Source of the DNA: a phage
DNA: 64,000 nt
Strand: one strand, 5' to 3'
Sequence record: PZ445448.1
Shown here piece after piece: positions 5,087 through 64,000 of the stretch. The notes below the pieces were generated by a model. That model was given only the letters and a program-made list of their open reading frames with translations. It had not been told where the DNA came from and searched no databases. Numbering within the stretch: the first letter of the stretch is position 1; each line of letters begins with the position of its first letter. The position numbers and the translations under genes were made by a program.

Positions 5087-5117
5087 CACCACAACGATTG
5101 AGAGAGGGAGCACCACT

Positions 5118-5318
5118 ATGGAGACTAAAATCTTAATTCTGGCTGTGATAGATACGACCGAAGGGGCCGTGTTCGAATCTGCAGGAGGGTATTTCTACCT
5201 GCCCTACGGAAAAATAACTTCCGAACCGAGTAAAGATTCAATCCTTAAAGTGTTCCCTTGTGCTTTCTGGCTGGAGATTCTAGTAGAAGATTGCAGAGGA
5301 TTGGGGAGAGAATTATGA
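5118..5318 (+). CDS. hypothetical small protein
   Basis: ATG after GAGAGGGAGC SD. Confidence 0.4.
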   Translation: METKILILAVIDTTEGAVFESAGGYFYLPYGKITSEPSKDSILKVFPCAFWLEILVEDCRGLGREL

Positions 5319-5509
5319 GAAACAAGAAAGAGCTTTATTCTGGCGAGTGGATCAACGATCAACAGGTCGGAGAGGTAACCTGCTTCCGGTGTTTTACTCG
5401 GTACAATCTTAAAACTGCACCAAAAAGTGTTCCAAAGACTGACGGTTATTACATAAAAGAACCTCATTGCCCAAAATGTAAATGCCGATTGTACTGGAGC
5501 AATCTATAA
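5315..5509 (+). CDS. zinc-ribbon small protein (CxxC...CxxC)
   Basis: ATGA overlap with upstream gene; TCFRCF and HCPKCKC motifs. Confidence 0.45.
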   Translation: MRNKKELYSGEWINDQQVGEVTCFRCFTRYNLKTAPKSVPKTDGYYIKEPHCPKCKCRLYWSNL

Positions 5510-5513
5510 GAGG

Positions 5514-5541
5514 TTGACATCTGAAAACTGCAGTGTATAGT
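5514..5541 (+). promoter_or_regulatory. sigma70-like promoter TTGACA-N16-TATAGT
   Basis: -35/-10 hexamers. Confidence 0.45.
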
Positions 5542-5572
5542 ATACGCATAAACTAACAGAGAGCGATGTATT

Positions 5573-5764
5573 ATGGTAATTTTTAACCGGGATGGTATCA
5601 TAGTTAGACAGCACCCGTTCCTTGAATACTATCAAATTGAGCAATGGTGCTACGGGGATTGCAGTCACTCCTATGGGCAAAGTTGGGGATATCGCACAGT
5701 TTTTGAATCAACAGACCTTGACAAAGTAAGACAGAAAGTTTTAGAACTTATTAACAACAAGTGA
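5573..5764 (+). CDS. hypothetical small protein
   Basis: ORF downstream of promoter. Confidence 0.45.
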   Translation: MVIFNRDGIIVRQHPFLEYYQIEQWCYGDCSHSYGQSWGYRTVFESTDLDKVRQKVLELINNK

Positions 5765-12460: not shown

Positions 12461-12832
12461 ATGGAATTTATTATTTTGGCTGTAGTAGTTGCCTTGTTCA
12501 ACGCCTGGATCGCTGGCAAGATAGGTAGATCCGCTTTTCTATGGTTTGTTATATCTATTTTCCTGGGAGTGGTTGCAACTATTGTATTGGTTATCCTTGC
12601 AATTGTTGACAAGGGCGATAATAGAAAGGGTAAAGTGTTTTCCGACCTGTATGACGCACAAACGTTTGTCAACGCCTATTATAGTGATCTTCCAGTCTCC
12701 CTACGCTGCAGCCTGGCACAACAGGTTTTTGATGAGGCTAAAACCAGAGACCAAGCCCATGAGATATGTTTAACTGAAGCGGATCGCCTATTTGAGAGGA
12801 ATAGAAAATATGTGGACCAGCCGTTTAAATAA
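12461..12832 (+). CDS. hypothetical membrane protein (start at MEFIILAV)
   Basis: terminator hairpin then AAGAGGTACATAGA-ATG; two hydrophobic segments. Confidence 0.5.
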   Translation: MEFIILAVVVALFNAWIAGKIGRSAFLWFVISIFLGVVATIVLVILAIVDKGDNRKGKVFSDLYDAQTFVNAYYSDLPVSLRCSLAQQVFDEAKTRDQAHEICLTEADRLFERNRKYVDQPFK

Positions 12833-12942
12833 CGCCACGTTAATTAATCCCTTTAGTGAAGATTTGAAGCCAGCCGCCTGGCGTGACGGATTCAATAACG
12901 AACGCTTTATTTTCAGGCCTGATCTTGAGGAATTTTATAACA

Positions 12943-13068
12943 ATGGATCGAACAACAGCGGAGATAATTTTTCTTGTGGTGTGCGTGGTGATAGGACTCC
13001 TGGGGGCCATTGTAAACCACGTCACTACTAACAGGAGGGAAGGGGGAGACGATGACAACCAAGGATAA
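12943..13068 (+). CDS. possible small TM peptide
   Basis: hydrophobic 41-aa ORF; competing overlapping ORF 12810-13031 in another frame. Confidence 0.25.
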   Translation: MDRTTAEIIFLVVCVVIGLLGAIVNHVTTNRREGGDDDNQG

Positions 13069-13170
13069 GCCATGCGCTGATAAGGTGCGCCGTGTTATGG
13101 TATGGCTTGAGATTATCGCCCTTGAAATATTGTTAGGCGTAGGGATGTACTTTATCGCTGTAAGTAACTA
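13052..13170 (+). CDS. small hydrophobic peptide (39 aa)
   Basis: GGGGGAG SD then ATG; followed by terminator. Confidence 0.4.
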
Positions 13171-53385: not shown

Positions 53386-54669
53386 TCATTCCAGAACCTC
53401 CCAAGTGTCTGGGTCAACATTTCGGACGCAGATACCGACAGGGAATTGGTAGTTGTTGTCTTCTGTCCTTGATTGATATTTGAAGGTGACAAACTTGCCG
53501 ATCATTTCCTGCATCCTGTCATAGCTACGCTCCTCGTGCGTGCCTTTCATCTTCATTTTAACAATAACACCTTCCTTGTCAACACAGATAAGAACACCTT
53601 CATCATTCTTATCTTTCTCAACGTCAATAACTTTCACCTCTGCGTCGTTGAACTTTTTCCATTTCAATGCTTCAGATGTTCGCTGACCGTACTCGTATTT
53701 ACCGCAGAAATTACGCATGATAGTACCTTCATATCCTTCGGACATGAATATACCAACAGATTCTTCGCAATGATCAACTGTGTACGCAAGCTCTGCGTCA
53801 ACAACCTTGATATGGTCAAGCATCAGAGTGGTAACGGTATCCTCTGCATCCATAAGATCCTTGCAGCGTCCAGACTCTGTTTCTGGATCCCACCACACCT
53901 TGTCGCTAGGAATATCAAAAATGTGATACTCCAGATCGTAGCTACAGTACCCACCGTAACGCAAATCATCACGAACAGGCTCAACATCGACAGGAATATC
54001 TACCTTGTTGAAGTTTTTGTATGTTGATAAGCCTGCCTTAATTGCTGCATGACGGCGTTTTTTATCTGCCTCATAGTCTTTATCGATCTCGGCCTGAATC
54101 TCTTCCTGTGTGCGCCACCGTTTAGCAAGAGACACTATTTTCTGCAAAGGAAGACCATGAATGTATAGTTCCCCATCAAGTTGTTTAATCCCAGTGGTAG
54201 AATGGAAAGAACGAAGTTGCTCTAAAAGCTTTCCTTGAATAGGGTAGGACTTATTACCACGGGAAATAAATTTAGGCTCACCATTTTGGAAAACAACAAG
54301 CAGACGAAGGCCATCTAACTTACGCAAGATCCAGCAAGGTAATTTAAGTGCCTTGCCACGCTTCAGGTAGTCATGCACCAGCATGGGTAAAAGATCAACA
54401 CCCTGCTCGCAATCTTCCATGTTTTCAACATACCCCAGACGGACTTGTTTTTCCCACTTGCTGATAGCCTCAAGCTCGGCCTGTTGCTCAGCTGTAGTCT
54501 CGTTGGCACGACCTACGTTCTTAGGTGTGCATACCGTCTCTTTGTACTGCAGTTTACCATCAAGCTTGCCAAACTCTACGATAACCTTATCACCATCCGT
54601 GAATACTTTCCACTGTTGGTAGCTGCCATCTTTATTCAGTGCGTACAGTGTTGTTTTGATCTGATGCAT
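53386..54669 (-). CDS. ATP-dependent polynucleotide ligase (DNA ligase-like)
   Basis: nucleotidyltransferase motif I KLDGLR; later EGTIMRN and KWKKF motifs. Confidence 0.55.
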   Translation of the reverse strand: MHQIKTTLYALNKDGSYQQWKVFTDGDKVIVEFGKLDGKLQYKETVCTPKNVGRANETTAEQQAELEAISKWEKQVRLGYVENMEDCEQGVDLLPMLVHDYLKRGKALKLPCWILRKLDGLRLLVVFQNGEPKFISRGNKSYPIQGKLLEQLRSFHSTTGIKQLDGELYIHGLPLQKIVSLAKRWRTQEEIQAEIDKDYEADKKRRHAAIKAGLSTYKNFNKVDIPVDVEPVRDDLRYGGYCSYDLEYHIFDIPSDKVWWDPETESGRCKDLMDAEDTVTTLMLDHIKVVDAELAYTVDHCEESVGIFMSEGYEGTIMRNFCGKYEYGQRTSEALKWKKFNDAEVKVIDVEKDKNDEGVLICVDKEGVIVKMKMKGTHEERSYDRMQEMIGKFVTFKYQSRTEDNNYQFPVGICVRNVDPDTWEVLE

Positions 54670-54938: not shown

Positions 54939-55233
54939 TGCAGTCCTCCTTCTGTAGTAGGTCTTTTATAGGATAAACAAGTAAGTGTGGGTCGTAATAA
55001 CGTATAGTCCTATTCTGCCACACTATGAACTTTATTACAACCAAATTTACAATATCTTTATCACCATGTAGCCCAACACACACATTTGTCCATATTTTGT
55101 GGTTGAAGACCTTGCTATCGATGTAGATTTTAGTGTCAAACTTATCCTCCATTCTACCAATAAGTTTGATCAGCTCCTTCATCTGGTCGCCAAACACAGC
55201 ATCTTTTTCAAGATCTCTGGAATGCTTGTACAT
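54925..55233 (-). CDS. hypothetical protein
   Basis: ORF in array. Confidence 0.4.
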   Translation of the reverse strand: MYKHSRDLEKDAVFGDQMKELIKLIGRMEDKFDTKIYIDSKVFNHKIWTNVCVGLHGDKDIVNLVVIKFIVWQNRTIRYYDPHLLVYPIKDLLQKEDCNAVI

Positions 55234-55295
55234 AACTGACTACCTCACTGCATACTTTCCATAGTAAGTAAAGCCGGGTAATCCCGGCTATGTTG

Positions 55296-56009
55296 TTAAA
55301 TATACTCTGTTACATCCTTGAAGCTCGAAGGCTTCATAATCTTACCTTTACTGTCAAGGAATATAATAACTTTATTGCCGTTGTAGAACTCCTCTTTAGC
55401 AACGAAACCTTCGTAGCGACCACCAAAACGACGCTCAAGATCTTTAATCTCCAACTCGATGAGTTGTTCAGCAGGCATATCTGCACTGGCACCGTGTGAA
55501 TGCCGTAGATGGTTGATCCGTGCAAACTTACTGTCATTAGATTTTAGAACCTTCCGCATCATCCCACACACATCCCCGCTAAGCTGGAACAGCAAAGCTG
55601 TTGATAACTCCGCTAGTCGGTAAGCTGACGCTCTTTGCTTGGATGTGTTTTTCGCAGCGATCAGTGTATCATAGAACTCACCGATCTTGAACTTAAGACC
55701 TCGCGGATTATCAAACAGGTTTGACCACTTTTCGTGGTTATCATTAACAAGATAAGCTGCATAACTTGTGACAACGTGAAGATCGCAGGCCTCTTTTAGC
55801 AGGTGATCTCCACCATCACCTTTCTCCAGCTCTTCCAAAACCTCATTGAACTCTTCCTCAATGAAGCTAAGCTGTAATTCGAATGGTGTGTATGATTTTT
55901 TCACTTTAGCTGCCACACGGTTCCAGTTTTCCACCCAGTTGGCAGACCAAAGGTAGTTTTCAGGCTGGGACAGTTTTTCCAGGTTGTCGATCAGTTTAGT
56001 ATTCAGCAT
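55296..56009 (-). CDS. putative MazG-like nucleotide pyrophosphohydrolase
   Basis: IEEEFNEVLEELEKGDGGDHLLKEACDL resembles the MazG EExxE...D metal-binding helix. Confidence 0.4.
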   Translation of the reverse strand: MLNTKLIDNLEKLSQPENYLWSANWVENWNRVAAKVKKSYTPFELQLSFIEEEFNEVLEELEKGDGGDHLLKEACDLHVVTSYAAYLVNDNHEKWSNLFDNPRGLKFKIGEFYDTLIAAKNTSKQRASAYRLAELSTALLFQLSGDVCGMMRKVLKSNDSKFARINHLRHSHGASADMPAEQLIELEIKDLERRFGGRYEGFVAKEEFYNGNKVIIFLDSKGKIMKPSSFKDVTEYI

Positions 56010-56022
56010 TAAAGGTCTCCTT

Positions 56023-56784
56023 TTAAAGTTCCATAAAGTTTTCTACAGTTTCAATAAATGCTTTATCAGAGAAAGCGTCAACAGCACCGTTAAACCATAC
56101 AGGGATCCCGCGATCCTCATATTGATAAAGGTCGCTACGTGAAATGCCACTTCCATCTGCACTCTGCGAATCATACTTGTTTACAATCAGCAGTTTTGTG
56201 CCTTTACAAGTAGCAGGAAACAATTCCCAGTTAAAATTAATAACTGTGTTAGAACAACCTACCAGGATCACCATATCATTGCTTGTGAGAGATGTCAACA
56301 GGTCATACATGTCTGTATACTTAGGAGCAACCTCACCGAAGAACACTACATTGGGCTTAACCCAGGTATACTTGCCTGTATCTACCTCCGTGTATCCGAT
56401 ATTTTTAATTACATCATTACCTTCAGCATCTTCGTAGGTGATTTCAGGCAAATACCCGTGGACATGTAAAATATCTTCATGTTTTACACCAGCACGCTCC
56501 AGCAAATCATCTACATTGGTAGTAAGGTTGATCACACGACCAGACCAGCGGGAATACCACTCAGCGATCCGAAGATGTGCAAGGTTAGGATCAACACTGC
56601 CCAGAGCTACACGACGTGCATTGTAAAAGTCATGCACCTTATAGTAGTTCTTGGCAAAGGTGTGGATGTTGCACACCTCATCGATGCTGAAATTCTCCCA
56701 CATTGCAGTGCTACCAGATCGGAAAGTGGGAATACCAGATTCAGCGCTCAAACCAGCACCGGAGATAATAATCAGTCGTCGCAT
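56023..56784 (-). CDS. Sir2-family NAD-dependent deacylase / ADP-ribosyltransferase
   Basis: GAGLSAESGIPTFRSG Rossmann/NAD motif at N-terminus. Confidence 0.75.
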   Translation of the reverse strand: MRRLIIISGAGLSAESGIPTFRSGSTAMWENFSIDEVCNIHTFAKNYYKVHDFYNARRVALGSVDPNLAHLRIAEWYSRWSGRVINLTTNVDDLLERAGVKHEDILHVHGYLPEITYEDAEGNDVIKNIGYTEVDTGKYTWVKPNVVFFGEVAPKYTDMYDLLTSLTSNDMVILVGCSNTVINFNWELFPATCKGTKLLIVNKYDSQSADGSGISRSDLYQYEDRGIPVWFNGAVDAFSDKAFIETVENFMEL

Positions 56785-56792
56785 AAGTGTCC

Positions 56793-57143
56793 TCAGTAGA
56801 TGTTTTGTTTAATCTCTATTCCAAACTTCTTGAATGAGTCAGCAGCAAGCATAAATTTACGAGCTGCCGATGGATTAGAAGTATGCACGAAAATAATCAC
56901 GTTGTCAATAAGTGGTGGCTTTCCGAATACAAGTTTCTCCTCTAGCGCAGAGAAGCAGTCGTACCCTTCAAGCACTTCACCTAGATCATTGTCAAAATGC
57001 CACTCAGAAACGCGCCTGTAGAGCTTTCTATTATCGTTAATAAAATCCATGAACTCAGAAGAGTTCTTCAGCCAAAGAGCATCTTGGATTCCGTAATTTG
57101 ACGGATCTCTCAAGTCATCTAGCCACACAATCAACTTCTTCAT
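56793..57143 (-). CDS. hypothetical protein (start at MKKLIVW)
   Basis: ATGA overlap with RNA ligase stop; GAGGA SD. Confidence 0.4.
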   Translation of the reverse strand: MKKLIVWLDDLRDPSNYGIQDALWLKNSSEFMDFINDNRKLYRRVSEWHFDNDLGEVLEGYDCFSALEEKLVFGKPPLIDNVIIFVHTSNPSAARKFMLAADSFKKFGIEIKQNIY

Positions 57144-58075
57144 TGCATATAGTCCTCGTTGTGAAAATAGCAATCAAGTATCTCACGGCGTTCCTGCTCC
57201 AGGAGGCAGTTCCACACATCTTCTGTGTAATTGCTACGAATGAAGTTTACCATGCCATAAAACTCTTCGTCAATACGTTTAAAGATATCATCATCCCAAA
57301 TCTTCCAAGCTTTACCCCTCATTACGGCCTTCCGTGCCAAATAGTATGGAGACTTGATCTTCAGCTGCAGGTCATAAGGGTAGTAAGGCTTACGGATCAT
57401 ATACCCTTCGCCCCTTGTTTCTGCAGCTAATTCTTTTGCATAGCTGAACGGGATTTCACGCAAAGTGTGAGGACGTTTTGCACCAAGGTATTTGGCAATC
57501 CCATCTAAAGCTGCTTCTGGTAGCATTATTCCAGAATCATTATATCTGCAACCTATCAAATATGCGCCATGGTCTTCTTGAACAATATGCGGATCTGAAG
57601 GGTGACAAATTTCAAACATGAATGTCATGTTTTCATTGCCCATAACCTTCTTGATAAGATCTAAATTACCACATTGCTCTTGGATGGTTTCCTTTGCAAG
57701 GTTACAATATGGAGAATCAAGAGACCCGGTTGTTGAGAACAATAGGTCACCTTTATGAGATGATACCACACCAAGGAATCCGTTCTTTTTCTCTACCGCA
57801 GTCACAAGCTTATTGTCAGGCAGGTTGGTGGAGTTTTCTCCCAAGTTAAACACTTTTGTGAAGGGCCATGCCACAACATTTCCTTCATTACCTACAACAA
57901 TGCCTCGGCACTCCAGTAAACGAGGGGACAAATGCCATAAATTGTTGTAAAATACTTTTCTAGCATATTTATAGATCTTTAACCCGAGATCTGGGTAATA
58001 CCTACTGGTTACAAGACCTTTGTCAACTAGGTCGTCTGCATTAAAATACTTCATCATACGTTCCTCATTTGTCAT
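57140..58075 (-). CDS. RNA ligase 1-like (T4 RnlA family)
   Basis: LLECRGIVV, KVFNLGEN and VEKKNGFL align with T4 Rnl1 ALECRGIMF, KFFNLNEN and TKEDGSL. Confidence 0.6.
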   Translation of the reverse strand: MTNEERMMKYFNADDLVDKGLVTSRYYPDLGLKIYKYARKVFYNNLWHLSPRLLECRGIVVGNEGNVVAWPFTKVFNLGENSTNLPDNKLVTAVEKKNGFLGVVSSHKGDLLFSTTGSLDSPYCNLAKETIQEQCGNLDLIKKVMGNENMTFMFEICHPSDPHIVQEDHGAYLIGCRYNDSGIMLPEAALDGIAKYLGAKRPHTLREIPFSYAKELAAETRGEGYMIRKPYYPYDLQLKIKSPYYLARKAVMRGKAWKIWDDDIFKRIDEEFYGMVNFIRSNYTEDVWNCLLEQERREILDCYFHNEDYMQ

Positions 58076-58175
58076 TTTGTCAGTCTATCCTGCCACACAA
58101 ATAACCTAGTGTCAACACTTGAAATTAACAAAACAGTTAGATATACTATCGTTGAAATTAAAACGGAGGGTCACT

Positions 58176-58586
58176 ATGTCTAAAATGCTATATATCGTGC
58201 GTGGTCTACCAGGGTCTGGCAAATCAACACTGGCAAATGCGCTATCTTTAGAGGGTCTGTATCCACATTTTGAGAACGACATGTTCTGGTATGACGATGA
58301 CGGCAATTACAACTGGGATGCAAGTAAAGTAACACTCGCAGCGAAATGGTGCAAAGATAACGTAGAAGATATGATGCGTATGGGATACGACCGTATCGTG
58401 GTAAGTAATACGTTTACAAAAGAAAAACATGTGCAGGAATATGTTGACATGGCAATCAGTCATGGGTATAGTTATACCGTGATCGTGGTTGAAAACCTCC
58501 ACGGTAATAAAAGCATTCATGATGTTCCAGACAAGGTTGTGGATCGTATGGAACGCCAGCTTAAAAACTGCATTAAACTTAAATGA
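58176..58586 (+). CDS. P-loop kinase (polynucleotide kinase-like)
   Basis: Walker A GLPGSGKST; GGAGGG SD; divergent from RNA ligase gene. Confidence 0.55.
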   Translation: MSKMLYIVRGLPGSGKSTLANALSLEGLYPHFENDMFWYDDDGNYNWDASKVTLAAKWCKDNVEDMMRMGYDRIVVSNTFTKEKHVQEYVDMAISHGYSYTVIVVENLHGNKSIHDVPDKVVDRMERQLKNCIKLK

Positions 58587-58593
58587 GGAATGT

Positions 58594-59148
58594 ATGAAAT
58601 ACTTTGTAACAAGCGACACACACTTTCTCCACCAGCGGGTCATGGAGTTTGATTCATGTCAAAAACACAGATCTCAGTATGATCACAATCTTGACAGTAT
58701 GAATGCGGGAATCATCGCCGAATGGAACTCTGTTGTGTCACCTGCAGACACTGTGTTCCACTTGGGAGATATTGCGTGCACTAATGATAAGAATATCAAC
58801 AACTTACTTCCAGATATTCTAAATATGTTGAACGGACATATTATTCTTGTTCGTGGCAACCATGACACACGGACGACTGTCAGAATTATGAAAGAGTTCG
58901 GTCATGAGGTTGTAGATTATTACGAGCTTCGCCACAACAAGAATTTGATCTGTATGAGCCATTACCAGTTTGCAAAGTGGAACAGAAAGCCTCACGGATC
59001 AGTCCAACTGTTCGGTCATGCTCACGGAACCACACAGCAGTTGTTTGGCAGGCAGTTTGATGTCGGTTGGGATGTGTGGGGGAGACTCTTACCATTAGAA
59101 GAGGCATACCGTATTGCAATGAGTCTTGCTATTGACAGCTGGGAGTAA
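58594..59148 (+). CDS. metallophosphoesterase (calcineurin-like phosphatase)
   Basis: motifs TSDTHF, GDIA and RGNHD. Confidence 0.6.
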   Translation: MKYFVTSDTHFLHQRVMEFDSCQKHRSQYDHNLDSMNAGIIAEWNSVVSPADTVFHLGDIACTNDKNINNLLPDILNMLNGHIILVRGNHDTRTTVRIMKEFGHEVVDYYELRHNKNLICMSHYQFAKWNRKPHGSVQLFGHAHGTTQQLFGRQFDVGWDVWGRLLPLEEAYRIAMSLAIDSWE

Positions 59149-59195
59149 TCCCTGCTATTTTAAAGAAAATTGCCACACAAGGAGAATCAGGAGAT

Positions 59196-59546
59196 ATGAA
59201 AGATGGGGATAAGCTGCTATATCTTAAAGTCCCCCTTGAAATACTGTCTATGTCAAAAGTTTTGAATGACACAACTGGGGAGGTTGTTGTTCTTGACTTG
59301 TATGACAAGATCGTATACTGCTACCTGCACAACTGGTATAAGCTTGGAGGAAGTTCACGCTTCACACCCAGCACAAGGAAAATTGCAGCAGATGTTGGGA
59401 TAAAGAAAACAAAAGCAGCAGCGTGCGTTAAAACTTTAGAATGTGCAGGAGTGGTTGAAATATCCACACAAGGGAGAGGTAAAAGATGCACATTTTCCAA
59501 AGTTTTGCCACCAGAAGAGGTTATTCGAATGTCAACAACTGGTTAG
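59196..59546 (+). CDS. putative DNA-binding protein (winged-helix-like)
   Basis: ORF with SD; C-terminal segment TRKIAADVGIKKTKAAACVKTLECAGVV; immediately upstream of hairpin repeat array. Confidence 0.4.
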   Translation: MKDGDKLLYLKVPLEILSMSKVLNDTTGEVVVLDLYDKIVYCYLHNWYKLGGSSRFTPSTRKIAADVGIKKTKAAACVKTLECAGVVEISTQGRGKRCTFSKVLPPEEVIRMSTTG

Positions 59547-59620
59547 ACCAGTAAAAACTTAAATATCTGTACTATAAGGATTCGTATGTTTTATGTTCGC
59601 TCTGGAACAGAGGTTAGTAA

Positions 59621-59703
59621 CTGTCCGTGATACGGACACTACTGTCCGTCACGCGGACACATCTGCCCGTAATACGGACACTAACTGTCCGTGATACGGA
59701 CAC
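59621..59703. repeat. four tandem 21-22-bp units each holding a 7-bp-arm hairpin (CTGTCCGTGATACGGACAC)
   Basis: units start at 59621, 59642, 59663, 59685; TGTCCGT / ACGGACA arms. Confidence 0.7.
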
Positions 59704-59850
59704 ATAAAGAATATAACTAAAATAACTAAATAATAAAAAATAAAAGATCTAGTACTTATGGTACTAAGTACATATACTTAACTTATGTAGAATATACTAG
59801 ATCCTAAGTACCATGTTTTAAATTTATTACTTACTATGGGTAGTGTCGGC

Positions 59851-60100
59851 CCTTCATTGGCACTCGCCTACGAGGGGCGAGATGCCGGGCCTCCCTGGTG
59901 CACACAATAACAGAAGTGCATACATGCAGGTCTGGTAACATGTGTGGGAGCGAAGCGATAGCGCAGGCCAAAGGCCGAGCACTGATGTGGACCACCGACG
60001 AAAGCTTGCCAGCGCCGTAAGGAGTCGGTTGAGAGTCTCCCGCGCGAGCTTGGATGAAGTTTATGTGTGGAAACGGACAAGAAGGCCCCTAAATCGCTCC
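59851..60100. ncRNA. candidate structured RNA or regulatory element (GC-rich island)
   Basis: abrupt GC rise; nested hairpins such as GGCACTCGCC-TACGAG-GGGCGAGATGCC; no credible ORF. Confidence 0.25.
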
Positions 60101-60206
60101 ACAGCTATATAAACTATACCAGGTAAGGCAATCGCACCAGTTTGATAGAAAAGCTCGTTACAAAGCGATACAGTGAGTTTTTCTATAACTTGAAGAGGAG
60201 GTAGTT

Positions 60207-60785
60207 ATGAGTCCACGCAAAGATGACCGTGAAAAGATTGCAAAACGTTATCAGAATGAAGAACAGATGGAGAAAACTTTCAAGTGGAAGCCAGGTTTCC
60301 AGCGTAATCATTCTAACGCTCGTGATCGTAAGCATCCGGATAAGTGGTTAACACCGCCAAATGATGGCATTCAGGTTGGTGATGAGAAGGAGCTGTCACC
60401 TGGAAAAGATGGCAACTACATTCGAACTAAGGAAGCAGGTCCAAAGGATGACAGCTATCTTGTAGATAAGGTTCTTGACGGTGTTGATGTAGGTGTTGAC
60501 ACTGTACGAAACCTTTTTCTTGGTTGGTATCGCACAGGGTTTTTCGACATCAAGGCTATTCGTCGTGTTTGTGATATTAAAAAGTCTGCCTACGATGATG
60601 ATTCCCTACATCGCACTCTGAGACAATACTCAGAGAGATACGGTCATCCAGTTATCACTCTTGACGATATTAACGAAGTTATGTATCATGTAGAGGTTGT
60701 TGCAGGTAGGTTCGGTGATGCATATCTCGGTATTCTCTCTGCAAAGGATGAGGTAATGTTAAATAAGATTTACTATGAACGCTGA
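60207..60785 (+). CDS. hypothetical protein
   Basis: GAAGAGGAGGTAGTT-ATG. Confidence 0.5.
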   Translation: MSPRKDDREKIAKRYQNEEQMEKTFKWKPGFQRNHSNARDRKHPDKWLTPPNDGIQVGDEKELSPGKDGNYIRTKEAGPKDDSYLVDKVLDGVDVGVDTVRNLFLGWYRTGFFDIKAIRRVCDIKKSAYDDDSLHRTLRQYSERYGHPVITLDDINEVMYHVEVVAGRFGDAYLGILSAKDEVMLNKIYYER

Positions 60786-60795
60786 GGGGCGATTA

Positions 60796-60984
60796 ATGAA
60801 CAATCCGGTAGCAAAGAACTGTAATAAATTCAACAAGTCTGCGATTCACACTGACAGGAAAAAGAGTTGGTTTCCTGACATTGACGAGGAGCTTGAGAGT
60901 TACTTTGAAGATTTAGTCACCAATGCAGAGGAGGTTGCGATTAAAGAATACGCAGACAGGAGGGATAAGGCCGGAATCTGTTGA
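60796..60984 (+). CDS. hypothetical small protein (start at MNNPVAK)
   Basis: GAGGGG SD. Confidence 0.4.
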   Translation: MNNPVAKNCNKFNKSAIHTDRKKSWFPDIDEELESYFEDLVTNAEEVAIKEYADRRDKAGIC

Positions 60985-61060
60985 CAAAAATAATGTTACC
61001 TGATAAGATCTGCAATATGATGTGATACAATTTTAACTTACGAGGTCTACAGGTAATGCT

Positions 61061-61303
61061 ATGTTTAAGGTTAAGCTCGTTTTTCGTTCCATGAATGAGG
61101 ATTATTTAGAAGATGAAGGTGAATTTCGTGCACTGGATGATGCAATAGATTTTGCCAACGACTTAGCTTGTATGAATACGGGTTATGGGCTATGCTGTTG
61201 GGATGGTGGTGTTCAGATCGGTGATAGCAAGATCTTCTACTTCTACCCTGAGCCCGATAACAAACAAATTAAGTATGTTTTATTTATTTGTGCTTTACAA
61301 TGA
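61061..61303 (+). CDS. hypothetical protein
   Basis: TTGACA promoter at 60973; ORF. Confidence 0.45.
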   Translation: MFKVKLVFRSMNEDYLEDEGEFRALDDAIDFANDLACMNTGYGLCCWDGGVQIGDSKIFYFYPEPDNKQIKYVLFICALQ

Positions 61304-61329
61304 GGTTGTTTTCGTGTATCATGATGAAT

Positions 61330-61620
61330 ATCCAATTTAAAGATGAATTTGATGGCTTTATCTCCGGATGCTTTGAAACAGGGTTCGGAGAAGACTGAGT
61401 TCCCCTTAGAGGGCTTGATAGTGCACCACACTTAAAATGGTAGGGGCAGCCAGCACATGACGATGTGACTCCAGCCAACCTGTAACAAGGTCGAGCCGAA
61501 GCGCGGGTAATAGGCCTCTGGTAACCCACTTGTTGGGTCTTGCTGGTCCAGGACGCTGGACAAGTCGCAGGGAACACCACCCTGCGGCGAACTTGACAAT
61601 CAGTATTTGCTATGATAAAA
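61330..61620. ncRNA. candidate structured RNA or leader (second GC-rich island)
   Basis: GC-rich with perfect hairpin CGCAGGG-AACACCAC-CCTGCG and others; no credible ORF. Confidence 0.2.
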
Positions 61621-61649
61621 TCCACCTATCACGTGATAATGGAGGAAAC

Positions 61650-61988
61650 ATGGCGGATACAACTAAAAAGCGTCGCCGTAGAGGCAGACCTCTGAAAGAG
61701 GAGTCCAACGCCATTCAGCTAGAGAAGAACATCCTTGATATGAAGGAATCTTTTATAGCGATGGTTCCAGAAGCTCACAAAGTTTTAAGAGAGCTGATGT
61801 TGGACCCGAAAACCAAACAAAATATTCGTCAAAGCATTGCAGAGTATGTTCTTGATAAGGCAGACCGAATGCAGGAAGAATATGATGAGATGTTTGGTGA
61901 AGAGGAAGAGGTGGTAGTAGAAGAGGCTGAAAAACCAGCACCTTTTATGCCATTCACCACAGAAATACAGCCTGTTGGCAATAGTTAA
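61650..61988 (+). CDS. hypothetical protein with AT-hook-like KKRRRRGRP motif and acidic C-terminus
   Basis: TGGAGGAAAC-ATG; TTGACA-N17-TAAAAT promoter upstream. Confidence 0.5.
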   Translation: MADTTKKRRRRGRPLKEESNAIQLEKNILDMKESFIAMVPEAHKVLRELMLDPKTKQNIRQSIAEYVLDKADRMQEEYDEMFGEEEEVVVEEAEKPAPFMPFTTEIQPVGNS

Positions 61989-61997
61989 AATATTTTC

Positions 61998-62026
61998 TTG
62001 ACAAACTTTGCTTAACAGTGTAATAT
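61998..62026 (+). promoter_or_regulatory. sigma70 promoter TTGACA-N17-TAATAT ahead of tRNA cluster
   Basis: consensus hexamers about 60 nt upstream of first tRNA. Confidence 0.5.
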
Positions 62027-62084
62027 TGTAAACATGGTCTCCCACCTTTTCTGGCGGCTAAGGTGTAAAAGAAAGCCACCCAGT

Positions 62085-62159
62085 GCCCTGTTAGCTTAGT
62101 GGATAAAGCAGCGGCCTTCTAAGCCGTTGACACTGGTTCGAGTCCAGTACGGGGTGCCA
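62085..62159 (+). tRNA. tRNA-Arg (anticodon TCT)
   Basis: cloverleaf folded by hand: acceptor GCCCTGT/ACGGGGT, anticodon loop CTTCTAA, T-loop TTCGAGT, encoded CCA. Confidence 0.75.
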
Positions 62160-62163
62160 AATT

Positions 62164-62250
62164 GGGGAGTTATCCCGTAGAGGTAGCGGTGTAGACTGTA
62201 AATCTATTGTCATTGCGACTCGGGTGGTTCGACTCCACCACTCCCCACCA
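62164..62250 (+). tRNA. tRNA-Tyr (anticodon GTA), long variable arm
   Basis: acceptor GGGGAGT/ACTCCCC, anticodon loop CTGTAAA, T-loop TTCGACT, CCA. Confidence 0.7.
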
Positions 62251-62364
62251 AATTTATATTTTTAGATGCATAAATAATACAGATAATGGCATTGATATTT
62301 ATCGTCGTTTATACTAGTCACTAACTGCTCGAAAATCAGTGTCATTATCAGTATAATTTATAAA

Positions 62365-62455
62365 GGAGGGTAGGGAGCAATGGTGCTCAAGCGGTCTTGA
62401 AAACCGTCCCGTTGAGGATGACTCGATGATGGTTCGATTCCATTACTCTCCGCCA
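62365..62455 (+). tRNA. tRNA-Ser (anticodon TGA), long variable arm
   Basis: acceptor GGAGGGT/ACTCTCC, anticodon loop CTTGAAA, T-loop TTCGATT, CCA. Confidence 0.65.
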
Positions 62456-62553
62456 CATTGTTGACCTTGTAATTAAGCGAAAGCCGGAAGCAGAACCGGA
62501 TTATCAAATGTTACAGTCGTCATCGCCGACTAGCAACATGGTCAACATACTGA

Positions 62554-62650
62554 GCTAGGTAAGCCCTTTGGCAAGGGCGAGGATTTTTAATCCTGAAAAT
62601 AGACGAGGTAGTCGTTGAATACATAGGTGGTTCGATTCCATCACCTAGCA
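62554..62650 (+). ncRNA. 97-nt tRNA-like element with irregular anticodon region
   Basis: perfect 7-bp acceptor GCTAGGT/ACCTAGC, D-arm, T-loop TTCGATT, but about 10-24 nt too long and no clean anticodon stem. Confidence 0.35.
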
Positions 62651-62657
62651 CCTTTTT

Positions 62658-62733
62658 GCTGATGTAGCACAATCGGTAGTGCAATTGATTTGTAATCAAT
62701 AGGTTGTAGGTTCAAGTCCTGCCATCAGCACCA
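62658..62733 (+). tRNA. tRNA-Thr (anticodon TGT)
   Basis: acceptor GCTGATG/CATCAGC, anticodon stem ATTGA/TCAAT loop TTTGTAA, CCA. Confidence 0.8.
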
Positions 62734-62734
62734 A

Positions 62735-62809
62735 GGCCCTGTAGCTGGAAGGTTCAAGCAAGCGACTCATAATCGCCAGACGGTGGTTCAATTCCACCCA
62801 GGGCCACCA
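62735..62809 (+). tRNA. tRNA-Met or Ile2 (anticodon CAT), elongator type
   Basis: acceptor GGCCCTG/CAGGGCC with G1-C72, anticodon loop CTCATAA, CCA. Confidence 0.7.
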
Positions 62810-62820
62810 AATAGTAAATA

Positions 62821-62897
62821 CTCCGCGTAGCTCAGCTTGGTAGAGCGCCTGATTTGGGATCAGGAGGTCGAGTGTTCGAATCACTCCGTGGAGACCA
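62821..62897 (+). tRNA. tRNA-Pro (anticodon TGG)
   Basis: D-arm GCTCAGCTTGGTAGAGC, anticodon stem CCTGA/TCAGG loop TTTGGGA, T-loop TTCGAAT, CCA. Confidence 0.8.
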
Positions 62898-62943
62898 CTT
62901 TCAGTTATACTTTAAACATATATAAACAAAAGGAACCTTTAAA

Positions 62944-63213
62944 ATGTATACACTTAAAATTGTAGAGCGTGTAAATCCAACTCATACCGTAGATTTTCGT
63001 GACGATTTCAATCCTCTGGCTGTAAATCTTCGAGAGTCATATCATGAACTCAGCTGCGATGCAGTGGTGGTCTTTTTTGAAGACAACTCTGAAGGGGCGG
63101 TAGCTTGTGTTGTTGATAGTGAGCAGAAGTTTTATATTTACAGAGATGTAGATGCATACTTGATGAATGAAAACGCAGTTACTGTTAGAATCATCCACCG
63201 AGTGCCTCGATAA
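62944..63213 (+). CDS. hypothetical protein
   Basis: AAAGGAACCTTTAAA-ATG. Confidence 0.45.
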   Translation: MYTLKIVERVNPTHTVDFRDDFNPLAVNLRESYHELSCDAVVVFFEDNSEGAVACVVDSEQKFYIYRDVDAYLMNENAVTVRIIHRVPR

Positions 63214-63266
63214 GTATTAGTCTCCTTTTAGTTAGTTTCGATCTATTTAGGTTACTCAATTTTAAC

Positions 63267-63300
63267 CCGCCCCGTTAGCTGTATAGCTGCGGGGTTTTTT
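63267..63300 (+). terminator. intrinsic terminator
   Basis: CCGCCCCG...CGGGG followed by TTTTTT. Confidence 0.6.
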
Positions 63301-63318
63301 CGTTTCTGGAGCCTTAAA

Positions 63319-63717
63319 ATGATTTCAGGTTTAACATGGCTGAGTAGGTATAGAGGGATCATAAAAGGTTTAGTTTTTGCAGCGGCTATAGGTACAGCTT
63401 ATCTTGGGGCCGTGTATTGGTTTAACTCTAAGCTTAATGAAGCCTACCAAGAAGGTGTGTTAGCAACAGAGTTGAAGTGGGAACGGATCCTTGATCAGCA
63501 ACAAAAGCAGGCCGACAAAATTAAAATGGGCCACGCAGAGGAGGTTAAAAACCTTGAAAAATCCCTTTCTGATCTACAGGATAAATTAAATATAGCTGAG
63601 AGGGCAGGTAGAGAAAAGCAGATTATCTACCTCCAATCACCTGAAGGTAAGAAGTCAACACTTCCTGATCAGCTTATAGATATTTATAATGAGAGTATCA
63701 ATCAGGAGGATCGATGA
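63319..63717 (+). CDS. putative inner-membrane spanin (Rz-like)
   Basis: N-terminal TM helix then long charged coiled coil; o-spanin gene starts at its stop. Confidence 0.5.
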   Translation: MISGLTWLSRYRGIIKGLVFAAAIGTAYLGAVYWFNSKLNEAYQEGVLATELKWERILDQQQKQADKIKMGHAEEVKNLEKSLSDLQDKLNIAERAGREKQIIYLQSPEGKKSTLPDQLIDIYNESINQEDR

Positions 63718-64000
63718 GAGTTGCCACACTGTTTATTGCGTGCTTGTTATTATGTGGGTGTGCAACCAGCGTTGAGAGAGAATACAAGATTGACCCTCCG
63801 GATGTAGGAAGGTTGATTGTTAAACCCCCAGAAGGTGCCATGAAACCACCTGCTAAGGCTATGCCTTTGAAGAAAGGTGCGCCAGATGCAGTGAATTCTG
63901 GCATTATGAGGGATAATAATCTGTCTTGTAGCAATGATAGAGCTAAATTGATCATTTTGCAAGACTATATTAGAACACTGTTTCCAAAGGAGAGAGGTTA
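63714..64000 (+). CDS. putative outer-membrane lipoprotein spanin (Rz1-like), 3'-partial at window end
   Basis: signal peptide with lipobox-like LLCGC; Pro-rich mature part; ATGA overlap with i-spanin. Confidence 0.5.
   Translation, partial: MRVATLFIACLLLCGCATSVEREYKIDPPDVGRLIVKPPEGAMKPPAKAMPLKKGAPDAVNSGIMRDNNLSCSNDRAKLIILQDYIRTLFPKERG

Follow-up and report, generated by a model that had tools for sequence, protein, structure and literature searches.

GOLLD and ROOL are large, ornate RNAs of 500-800 nucleotides (nt), often phage-borne beside transfer RNA (tRNA) genes, and their function is unknown. The species 1 and 2 RNAs of phage T4 (rnaC and rnaD) are small stable RNAs of the T4 tRNA cluster whose function is likewise still unknown. 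Here we describe a conserved RNA motif in a stretch of phage DNA of 64,000 nt (record PZ445448.1; hereafter the window). The window belongs to an rV5-like coliphage of the genus Vequintavirus, and over 100 rV5-like coliphages match its segment 59500-62100 at 97-99.6% identity. The motif lies in a region rich in guanine and cytosine (GC) at 61330-61620, which we call island 2; a second GC-rich stretch upstream, at 59835-60110, is called island 1. Island 2 is a noncoding RNA locus, of which the part at 61443-61528 is conserved, structured, strand-specific and restricted to phages.

The motif resembles GOLLD and ROOL in being phage-carried, often beside tRNA genes, and in having a complex structure backed by covariation. 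It differs from them in its length of only ~90 nt, in its lack of an Rfam match to either family and in its hosts, which are virulent phages of Enterobacteriaceae and Pseudomonas; nothing suggests that it forms multimeric assemblies. With rnaC and rnaD it shares the character of a non-tRNA RNA beside phage tRNA genes, presumably derived from the same precursors, but neither RNA is similar to either island. A covariance model of the motif (R1, below) finds no copy at rnaC or rnaD, and the T4 copy lies ~6 kb away, between denV and vs.8.

A conserved motif confined to virulent phages

Island 2 stands out by its composition, as an earlier sequence-only reading of the window had noticed: its GC content is 0.49-0.59 over 61350-61600 (100-nt steps), against 0.28-0.45 in the flanks and ~0.43 in the window as a whole. 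It contains no credible open reading frame (ORF). A sensitive BLAST search of island 2 against 50,697 phage records returned, besides rV5-like genomes, ~400 T4-like genomes that match 61467-61514 only, at 85-87% identity. The matching stretch of T4 and Bp7 falls in the denV-vs.8 spacer, on the coding strand. Pattern scans then covered IMG/VR, metagenomes and prokaryotes, the last with one genome for each species, and new members served as seeds for further BLAST searches. The core, CCAACCUGUAAnAAGGUCGAGCC-N5-GCGGUAAUGG, was found in Tequatrovirus, Dhakavirus, Jiaodavirus, Karamvirus, rV5-like and diverged Vequintavirinae-like phages, and the same core is present in the N4-like Klebsiella phage KpCHEMY26 (Pylasvirus), in 46-kb Klebsiella siphophages, in the Pseudomonas syringae phage KIL1 (Flaumdravirus) and in several uncultured phages. 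About a thousand virulent phage genomes from several unrelated groups, T4 included, retain the motif, and its core is far more conserved than the adjacent protein genes.

The fold was first parsed by hand from the variants set side by side, and R1 was built from 18 sequences. R1 gives exactly one strong hit per true locus, at 31-104 bits. In the window it identifies a single copy, which spans model positions 1-91:

61443-61528, + strand: conserved RNA motif, 86 nt (R1, 58.4 bits, E = 3e-12)

The other R1 hit in the window, at 53782-53854, scores 17.8 bits (E = 0.05) and is probably due to chance.

Cellular genomes gave a different picture. None of 5,426 complete E. coli genomes contains the motif. 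Among 185,579 species genomes there were four pattern hits, all in GC-rich coding sequence; a pattern of 19 specified bases would, by our estimate, produce ~4 hits in 596 Gb by chance alone. Among plasmids (PLSDB) there was a single hit, at 100804-100890 of CP057073.1, a 137.5-kb E. coli record. This hit is 100% identical to one of the phage variants (L024), and the record probably represents the genome of an rV5-like phage misfiled among plasmids. Because E. coli genomes lack the motif, the hits in species genomes are at chance level and the plasmid hit is probably phage, we regard the motif as confined to virulent phages. Only virulent tailed phages of Gammaproteobacteria carry this structured RNA family.

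Covariation defines the fold

Comparison of the variants divides the + strand motif into the following elements:

61443-61446 with 61469-61472, + strand: helix P0
61447-61453, + strand: internal loop in P0, 7-11 nt across the family
61454-61458 with 61463-61467, + strand: P1 hairpin
C61475, C61476 and A61477 with U61511, G61513 and G61514: helix alpha, with A61512 bulged (G in most members)
61478-61481 with 61488-61491: hairpin H, loop GUAACA
61492-61510, + strand: near-invariant junction C-GAGCC-GAAGC-GCGGG-UAA
61450-61453 (CCAG) with 61518-61521 (CUGG), + strand: candidate pseudoknot

The P0 part is separated from helix alpha by 1-3 linker nt, and in the Klebsiella-phage types P0 closes one larger loop. 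Hairpin H (ACCU, 6-nt loop, AGGU) stacks directly on alpha. The junction, which reads C-GAGCC-N5-GCGG-UAA across the family, is almost invariant from coliphages to a Pseudomonas phage; the window variant has one extra G after GCGG and an A instead of G at the bulge. The window copy contains every part of the full R1 model, namely P0, P1, alpha, H and the junction.

Covariation was assessed in a model-fitted alignment of 50 distinct sequences with 20 proposed pairs. In this alignment 91.6% of the cells are paired, compared with 77% after shuffling, and 15 of the 20 pairs have changed on both sides. None of 500 shuffles reached the observed value on four of five measures, and two did so on the fifth. 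When the partner columns were shifted by 1-3 positions, pairing fell to 28-51%. In helix alpha all cells (100%) are paired, and each position shows three to five pair types: C-G, G-C and A-U at position 1; C-G, G-C, U-A, A-U and G-U at position 2; and A-U, U-A, U-G and C-G at position 3. RNAalifold, to which no structure was supplied, returned P0, alpha and H together with a short invariant GCC/GGU helix. Together alpha, H and the GCC/GGU helix form a compact three-way junction. The G-U wobbles arise only when the + strand is read, as the other strand would give A-C mismatches. Double compensatory changes and strand-specific wobbles therefore reveal selection on RNA pairing. The suspicion that the island works at the level of RNA is thus borne out by compensatory changes on the + strand, G-U wobbles among them, across distant phages.

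The candidate pseudoknot joins the P0 internal loop to the tail 3-8 nt after alpha, and its strands could form 5-8 bp in rV5-like phages, in KIL1 and in a 96-kb contig of an uncultured phage (L017).

The motif does not encode protein

Several GenBank records annotate protein here, as a small protein or an N-terminal extension. Two ORFs, 61284-61625 (- strand) and 61530-61988 (+ strand, TTG start), could accommodate such products in the window, and coding sequences have been annotated in some records, such as the long vs.8 of RefSeq T4 and hypothetical proteins over the island in rV5-like phages. Against this stands the pattern of variation: indels of 1, 2 and 8 nt, which break the frame, distinguish the cores of close rV5-like relatives, and substitutions track base pairing rather than codons. 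In KIL1 and other phages this sequence is found between tRNA genes. In RefSeq T4 (NC_000866), vs.8 is annotated at 64253-64912, with a start inside the motif, only 26 nt beyond denV. This frame is closed in Bp7 and other T4-like phages, whose vs.8 begins ~75 nt further downstream, and the RefSeq T4 start is probably placed too far upstream. The frame-breaking indels and the closed Bp7 frame led us to reject protein coding, a reading that we find barely credible.

The motif accompanies tRNA genes and vs.8 in other phages

All 13 listed loci that contain tRNAs have the motif on the tRNA strand. KIL1 carries it between tRNA-Met and tRNA-Arg, and in one uncultured phage (L047) it begins ~20 nt after a tRNA-like gene. 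In the Klebsiella siphophages and KpCHEMY26 it occupies long noncoding stretches adjoining tRNA clusters. A spacer of 350-750 nt follows it in KIL1 and KpCHEMY26. In the contig L017 a perfect sigma70 promoter, tRNAs, the motif and an 11-bp terminator follow one another; the intrinsic terminator begins 8 nt after the motif, and an ORF lies 35 nt beyond it. The same contig also carries a group I intron at 12784-13079 (Rfam, 54 bits). In KpCHEMY26 (L050, 1368-2372) and in another Klebsiella-phage locus (L006, ~5100-5650), two long similar hairpins (CACAACAGGUAAGAGCA...UGCUCUUUCCGUUGUG) flank the motif within 0.8-1 kb of noncoding sequence, which may contain more structured RNA.

In more than 1,000 T4-like genomes a different association was seen: vs.8 invariably follows the motif at a distance of 45-75 nt, and the gene before the motif is one of at least four. 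In Karamvirus-like contigs there are two copies in tandem ahead of vs.8 (L081, 8968-9078 and 9104-9191; L073, 5081-5258). The second copy is degenerate (GGUC-AGCC), and its hairpin H has changed to GCCU/AGGC, a compensatory change. The homologues of vs.8 that were detected all belong to T4-like phages and relatives on enterobacterial hosts, and Vequintavirus yielded none; vs.8 itself gave no informative match to a protein family or solved structure. Because its homologues are limited in this way, vs.8 is not a universal protein partner of the motif.

Promoters and hairpins around the motif

The remainder of island 2 and its borders contain the following features:

61294-61322, + strand: promoter-like TTTACA-17-TATCAT (10/12 consensus match), overlapping the stop codon of an 80-amino-acid ORF
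61321-61398, + strand: small ORF of 25 codons, MMNIQFKDEFDGFISGCFETGFGED, status uncertain
61361-61391, + strand: stable hairpin UCUCCGGAU...AGGGUUCGGAGA, rV5-type only (z = -2.5; 3/200 shuffles)
61402-61446, + strand: 5' module M from sequence comparison, CCCC-UUAGA-GGG, then CUUGAUAGUGC, then hairpin ACCA...UGGU
61525-61537, + strand: small hairpin CCCA-CUUGU-UGGG
61546-61551 with 61556-61561, + strand: hairpin GUCCAG-GACG-CUGGAC
61565-61573 with 61581-61589, + strand: 9-bp hairpin GUCGCAGGG-AACACCA-CCCUGCGGC
61593-61621, + strand: sigma70-type promoter TTGACA-17-TAAAAT with extended -10 TG (11/12 consensus match)

A sigma70 promoter at the end of the island had been predicted, and the site at 61593-61621 matches the consensus at 11 of 12 positions. 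Promoters at 60981 and 61998 are built in the same way, and relatives have kept the site at 61593-61621. It would serve the gene for an AT-hook-like protein (start 61650; GGAGG at 61642-61646) and the tRNA cluster. The position of this promoter rules out a structured 5' leader transcribed from it, one of two functions that had been proposed for the island, as every structure is upstream of the promoter and a transcript begun there would have only ~22 nt ahead of the start at 61650. A second possible start is the promoter-like site at 61294-61322, from which a transcript beginning at ~61329 could cover the whole island. In diverged rV5 relatives a better match, the consensus promoter TTGACA-17-TATACT, is found directly upstream of the island and nearer to the RNA, and another promoter follows the island. 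The hairpin at 61361-61391 occupies the spot where these relatives carry their promoter, and at the position of the small ORF they encode MKDEFDGF* with a good Shine-Dalgarno sequence. Since the shared stretch is identical at the nucleotide level, selection on a peptide and selection on RNA are indistinguishable here, and the small ORF may be a leader peptide or a coincidence. Module M is common to the diverged Vequintavirinae-like contigs, which have a second, similar module 3' of the core.

The hairpins downstream of the core are variable. The one at 61525-61537 is dispensable, judging from an 8-nt deletion that disrupts it in a close relative (L043). At 61546-61561, an A-to-G change in another relative (L009) gives a U-G wobble, and diverged relatives have a hairpin of differing sequence at this position. 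The hairpin at 61565-61589 is absent from diverged relatives. The sequence-only reading had quoted two perfect hairpins, both of which exist and are stable: CGCAGG/CCUGCG is a perfect 6-bp stem that extends to 9 bp, and GUCCAG/CUGGAC is perfect as well, but the longer arms quoted for the latter, TGGTCCAG/CTGGACA, do not pair end to end. That reading had not singled out the informative part at 61443-61528, and the three 3' hairpins are specific to the rV5 type. The sequence after the hairpin at 61546-61561 is AAGUCG and that after 61565-61589 is GAACUUGAC; because no U tract follows, neither is an intrinsic terminator. The hairpins at 61361-61391 and 61525-61537 likewise lack a U tract behind them. 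A scan of the + strand for intrinsic terminators over 61528-62085 found none.

Comparison with known RNA families

A search of 55000-64000 with Rfam 15 (4,227 models, E up to 1) returned only tRNAs and below-threshold matches in the tRNA cluster, leaving both islands empty. With E raised to 10, 61300-61640 gave two chance-level hits of 12-15 bits, to small nucleolar and small RNA models. The Rfam scan suggested for the island thus matched no known family, and Rfam found nothing over the motif (gathering threshold) at the T4 locus and six other loci. Neither ARAGORN nor the Rfam tRNA model detected a tRNA cloverleaf in the island. An exact-string search found the core sequence printed in no open-access paper. 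A catalogue from 2023 lists 10,006 candidate structured RNAs of viruses, among which the motif may have an anonymous entry, and a literature search on noncoding RNA of Vequintavirus or T4 found nothing relevant. The motif is apparently an undescribed RNA family.

T-box and other RNAs that bind the tRNA elbow are comparable in the association with tRNA genes, but the motif has no Rfam T-box match and neither specifier nor antiterminator architecture. Some strings recall known RNAs: GAUAGUG in module M and GGUAA in the core and tail resemble T-loops, and other parts resemble the 530 loop of 16S ribosomal RNA (GCC...GCGGUAAU) and the tRNA D-arm (GGUAGAGC). We do not rely on these resemblances.

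HDV-like (hepatitis delta virus-like) theta ribozymes occur beside phage tRNAs (PMC10879173). The motif is likewise small, has a candidate pseudoknot and lies in phage tRNA arrays on the tRNA strand. Its elements follow the order P0[loop, P1] - alpha[H, short helix] - tail, rather than a nested double pseudoknot, and the invariant GAGCC lacks a P1 partner: in the aligned sequences we read nothing complementary to CGAGCC upstream of alpha in any lineage. An HDV-like or theta fold was rejected on this topology and the missing P1 partner, and there was no HDV-family Rfam hit.

Possible functions of the motif

In the phage studied here, we tentatively favor, at slightly less than even confidence, a discrete or processed RNA that arises along with the early and tRNA transcripts. 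The RNA would be produced early, together with the tRNA cluster, within read-through transcripts that start at promoters further upstream (60981, perhaps 61294), and the motif would then act as, or be processed into, a discrete stable RNA rather than serve as leader of the AT-hook gene. The flanking hairpins at 61361-61391 and 61525-61589 would be lineage-specific stabilizing or processing structures. The P0 internal loop probably pairs with the tail 3' of alpha to form a pseudoknot, and the folded module would most likely bind a conserved partner through its invariant junction. Candidates for this partner are a small ligand or a macromolecule of the host, for example a tRNA, an enzyme that handles tRNAs or the translation machinery. 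We prefer a discrete RNA to a leader because the promoter at 61593-61621 lies downstream of the structures. It is further favored because diverged relatives have a promoter upstream of the island, because L017 shows the order promoter, tRNAs, motif and terminator, and because the KIL1 motif lies between tRNAs. The independent small RNA that had been offered as the other function of the island is thus plausible, with support from the upstream promoter of the diverged relatives and from L017, where the motif ends a tRNA operon before a strong terminator.

Several observations weigh against this assignment. The fixed spacing to vs.8, the varying upstream gene and the tandem copies fit a cis-regulatory element better, and promoter and terminator signals around the motif are inconsistent across the other lineages. 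The ends, abundance and stability of the RNA are all inferred. The pair counts come from model-fitted alignments, which favor structure, although the hand parse that predates R1 shows identical compensations. The folding energy of the whole island is unremarkable (z = -1.37; 18/200 shuffles equally good), and that of the core is lower still in significance (z = -0.60), with a minimum-energy fold that differs from the comparative structure. The expectation of more structure than chance holds for the 3' hairpin block at 61525-61592 (z = -2.84; 4/200 shuffles equally good) and fails for the island as a whole and for the core. Because the shuffles are beaten only by local blocks, island 2 is exceptional by its composition and the comparative evidence, not by folding energy. 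Finally, the signal for the pseudoknot is modest (Fisher combined p = 0.002-0.007) and at chance level in T4 and the Klebsiella-phage type, which is why we keep it as a candidate only.

An alternative that we consider possible but unlikely is a riboswitch-like cis-regulator, whose aptamer would sense a small molecule, a tRNA or a protein and control read-through or translation downstream; its targets would be vs.8 in T4-like phages and the AT-hook gene and tRNA cluster in rV5-like phages. With its ~90 nt, conserved junction strands, covarying peripheral helices and candidate pseudoknot, the motif has the size and the junction-centred conservation typical of aptamers. The best evidence is its constant position before vs.8 behind at least four upstream genes, to which the tandem Karamvirus copies and the L017 terminator, close to both motif and ORF, can be added. 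A same-strand position in the 5' untranslated region is seen in T4-like phages and L017, whereas in the window a promoter intervenes and in KIL1 the motif lies between tRNAs. The downstream genes form an incoherent set (vs.8, the AT-hook protein, tRNAs and a 629-amino-acid protein), and vs.8 homologues are restricted to T4-like phages and their relatives on enterobacterial hosts. The rV5-like phages have a strong predicted promoter between motif and next gene and no terminator, and long spacers follow the motif in KIL1 and KpCHEMY26. No conserved expression platform was found: T4-like leaders show no conserved alternative pairing, a conserved GGCCC downstream in these phages does not covary with the 3' strand of alpha, and only L017 has a terminator. 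Nor is there an Rfam riboswitch match. A self-cleaving ribozyme or processing element that would cut polycistronic early or tRNA-operon transcripts seems improbable to us. The constant tRNA strand in tRNA operons and the small, highly conserved and possibly pseudoknotted core would suit it, but the ~30 near-invariant nt exceed the need of most small self-cleaving ribozymes. Phage tRNA arrays do provide a precedent (PMC10879173). Against it, no Rfam 15 ribozyme model matches with E up to 10, the helix order is not that of a nested double pseudoknot, and the invariant GAGCC has no covarying upstream partner. Less probable again is an ordinary structured spacer, in which the island would be GC-rich leader or 3' untranslated sequence, with hairpins that do no more than stabilize or punctuate transcripts, and the conserved stretch a mobile sequence lacking its own function or a DNA-level site such as a recombination or endonuclease target. 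The unremarkable folding of the whole island, the position of the T4-like motif at boundaries of variable gene content and the HNH or GIY-YIG endonuclease genes of phage tRNA regions speak for it; the double compensatory changes in 15 of 20 pairs with their strand-specific wobbles, the retention of the motif in ~1,000 genomes of several unrelated phage groups and a core far better conserved than the neighboring protein genes speak against it. Jointly, a spacer, a DNA site and protein coding receive only a small share of our confidence.

Across the family as a whole, it is quite possible, at somewhat less than even confidence, that the motif represents a new functional RNA class specific to virulent phages, be it a riboswitch or tRNA sensor that adjusts the expression of phage tRNAs and early genes, a self-cleaving ribozyme or an RNA decoy. 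Such a decoy would bind a conserved host factor, for instance a defence nuclease directed at tRNAs or part of the translation machinery. If a functional RNA is confirmed, an RNA of ~90 nt with a near-invariant core would be kept by T4-like, rV5-like and N4-like phages, Klebsiella siphophages and a Pseudomonas myovirus; such conservation together with covarying helices is shown by riboswitches, ribozymes and RNAs that bind core cellular machinery. T4, the best-studied phage, would then hold a new orphan RNA class that has gone unnoticed there and is partly annotated as the N-terminus of vs.8. Gene annotations in T4 and rV5-like genomes would be corrected, with the GC-rich islands of the latter listed as RNA loci and not as hypothetical proteins. 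The motif would also give a testable handle on the reason for which phages retain non-tRNA RNAs beside their tRNA genes, a question open since the T4 species 1 and 2 RNAs.

Island 1 and the surrounding genes

The genes and elements around island 2, in an order that annotated relatives share, are as follows:

within 57140-59148, - strand: RNA ligase gene
within 57140-59148: polynucleotide kinase/phosphatase-like genes (a P-loop gene, then a metallophosphoesterase gene)
59196-59546: small replication-initiator-like helix-turn-helix gene (phrog_12838)
59618-59830: four iterons of 21-22 nt, each with an internal palindrome TGTCCGTGATACGGACA, then an AT-rich palindromic stretch (GC 0.19-0.29)
59835-60110: island 1, GC-rich, ~275 nt
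between island 1 and island 2: three small genes of no known function
61650-61988, + strand: AT-hook-like protein gene, 112 amino acids with an RGRP N-terminus (phrog_3330, function unknown)

Island 1 and island 2 are unrelated. The sequence-only reading had noted a short motif common to both, and had proposed an alignment of the two as a check. A blastn-short comparison (59835-60110 against 61330-61620) found no similarity, and R1, run on island 1 with filters off, reached at best 3.3 bits, on the - strand. The shared 11-mer GAGCNNAAGCG (up to one mismatch) occurs 7 times in the window, against 8.2 occurrences expected, and in island 2 its GAAGC portion coincides with the variable linker of 5 nt within the motif, where relatives have CAAGU, AGAGC, UGAGC and others; the resemblance is due to chance. 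Island 1 is 96% conserved over six rV5-like sequences, with 1-nt indels, and is therefore noncoding. It gave no Rfam match and could be another structured RNA, unrelated to the first, or belong to an origin. A hammerhead-like CUGAUG...GAAA in island 1 was tried and discarded, as it is not conserved (CTAATG in four of six sequences) and has no Rfam hit. The view that the two islands bracket a three-gene module is correct within the genus only: island 1 is genus-restricted, and diverged relatives keep island 2 and the gene preceding it but lack island 1. The AT-hook-like gene comes after the RNA in every Vequintavirinae-like locus seen.

Just downstream of the initiator-like gene, the stretch at 59618-59830 looks like a replication origin, which island 1 abuts. 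The genes at 57140-59148, RNA ligase included, adjoin the origin, islands and tRNA region and resemble a tRNA-repair gene set. Eighteen INPHARED records titled 'Campylobacter phage' are ~98% identical to E. coli rV5-like phages in this region, which probably reflects mislabelling or contamination. ARAGORN placed seven tRNAs at 62085-62897 and none within island 2. At 62554-62652 it reported a tRNA-like gene of 99 nt with a four-base anticodon (atcc), which scores only 35.5 bits with Rfam. A similarly odd tRNA (ctgg) is found at 3587-3669 in L047, directly upstream of the motif copy of that uncultured phage.

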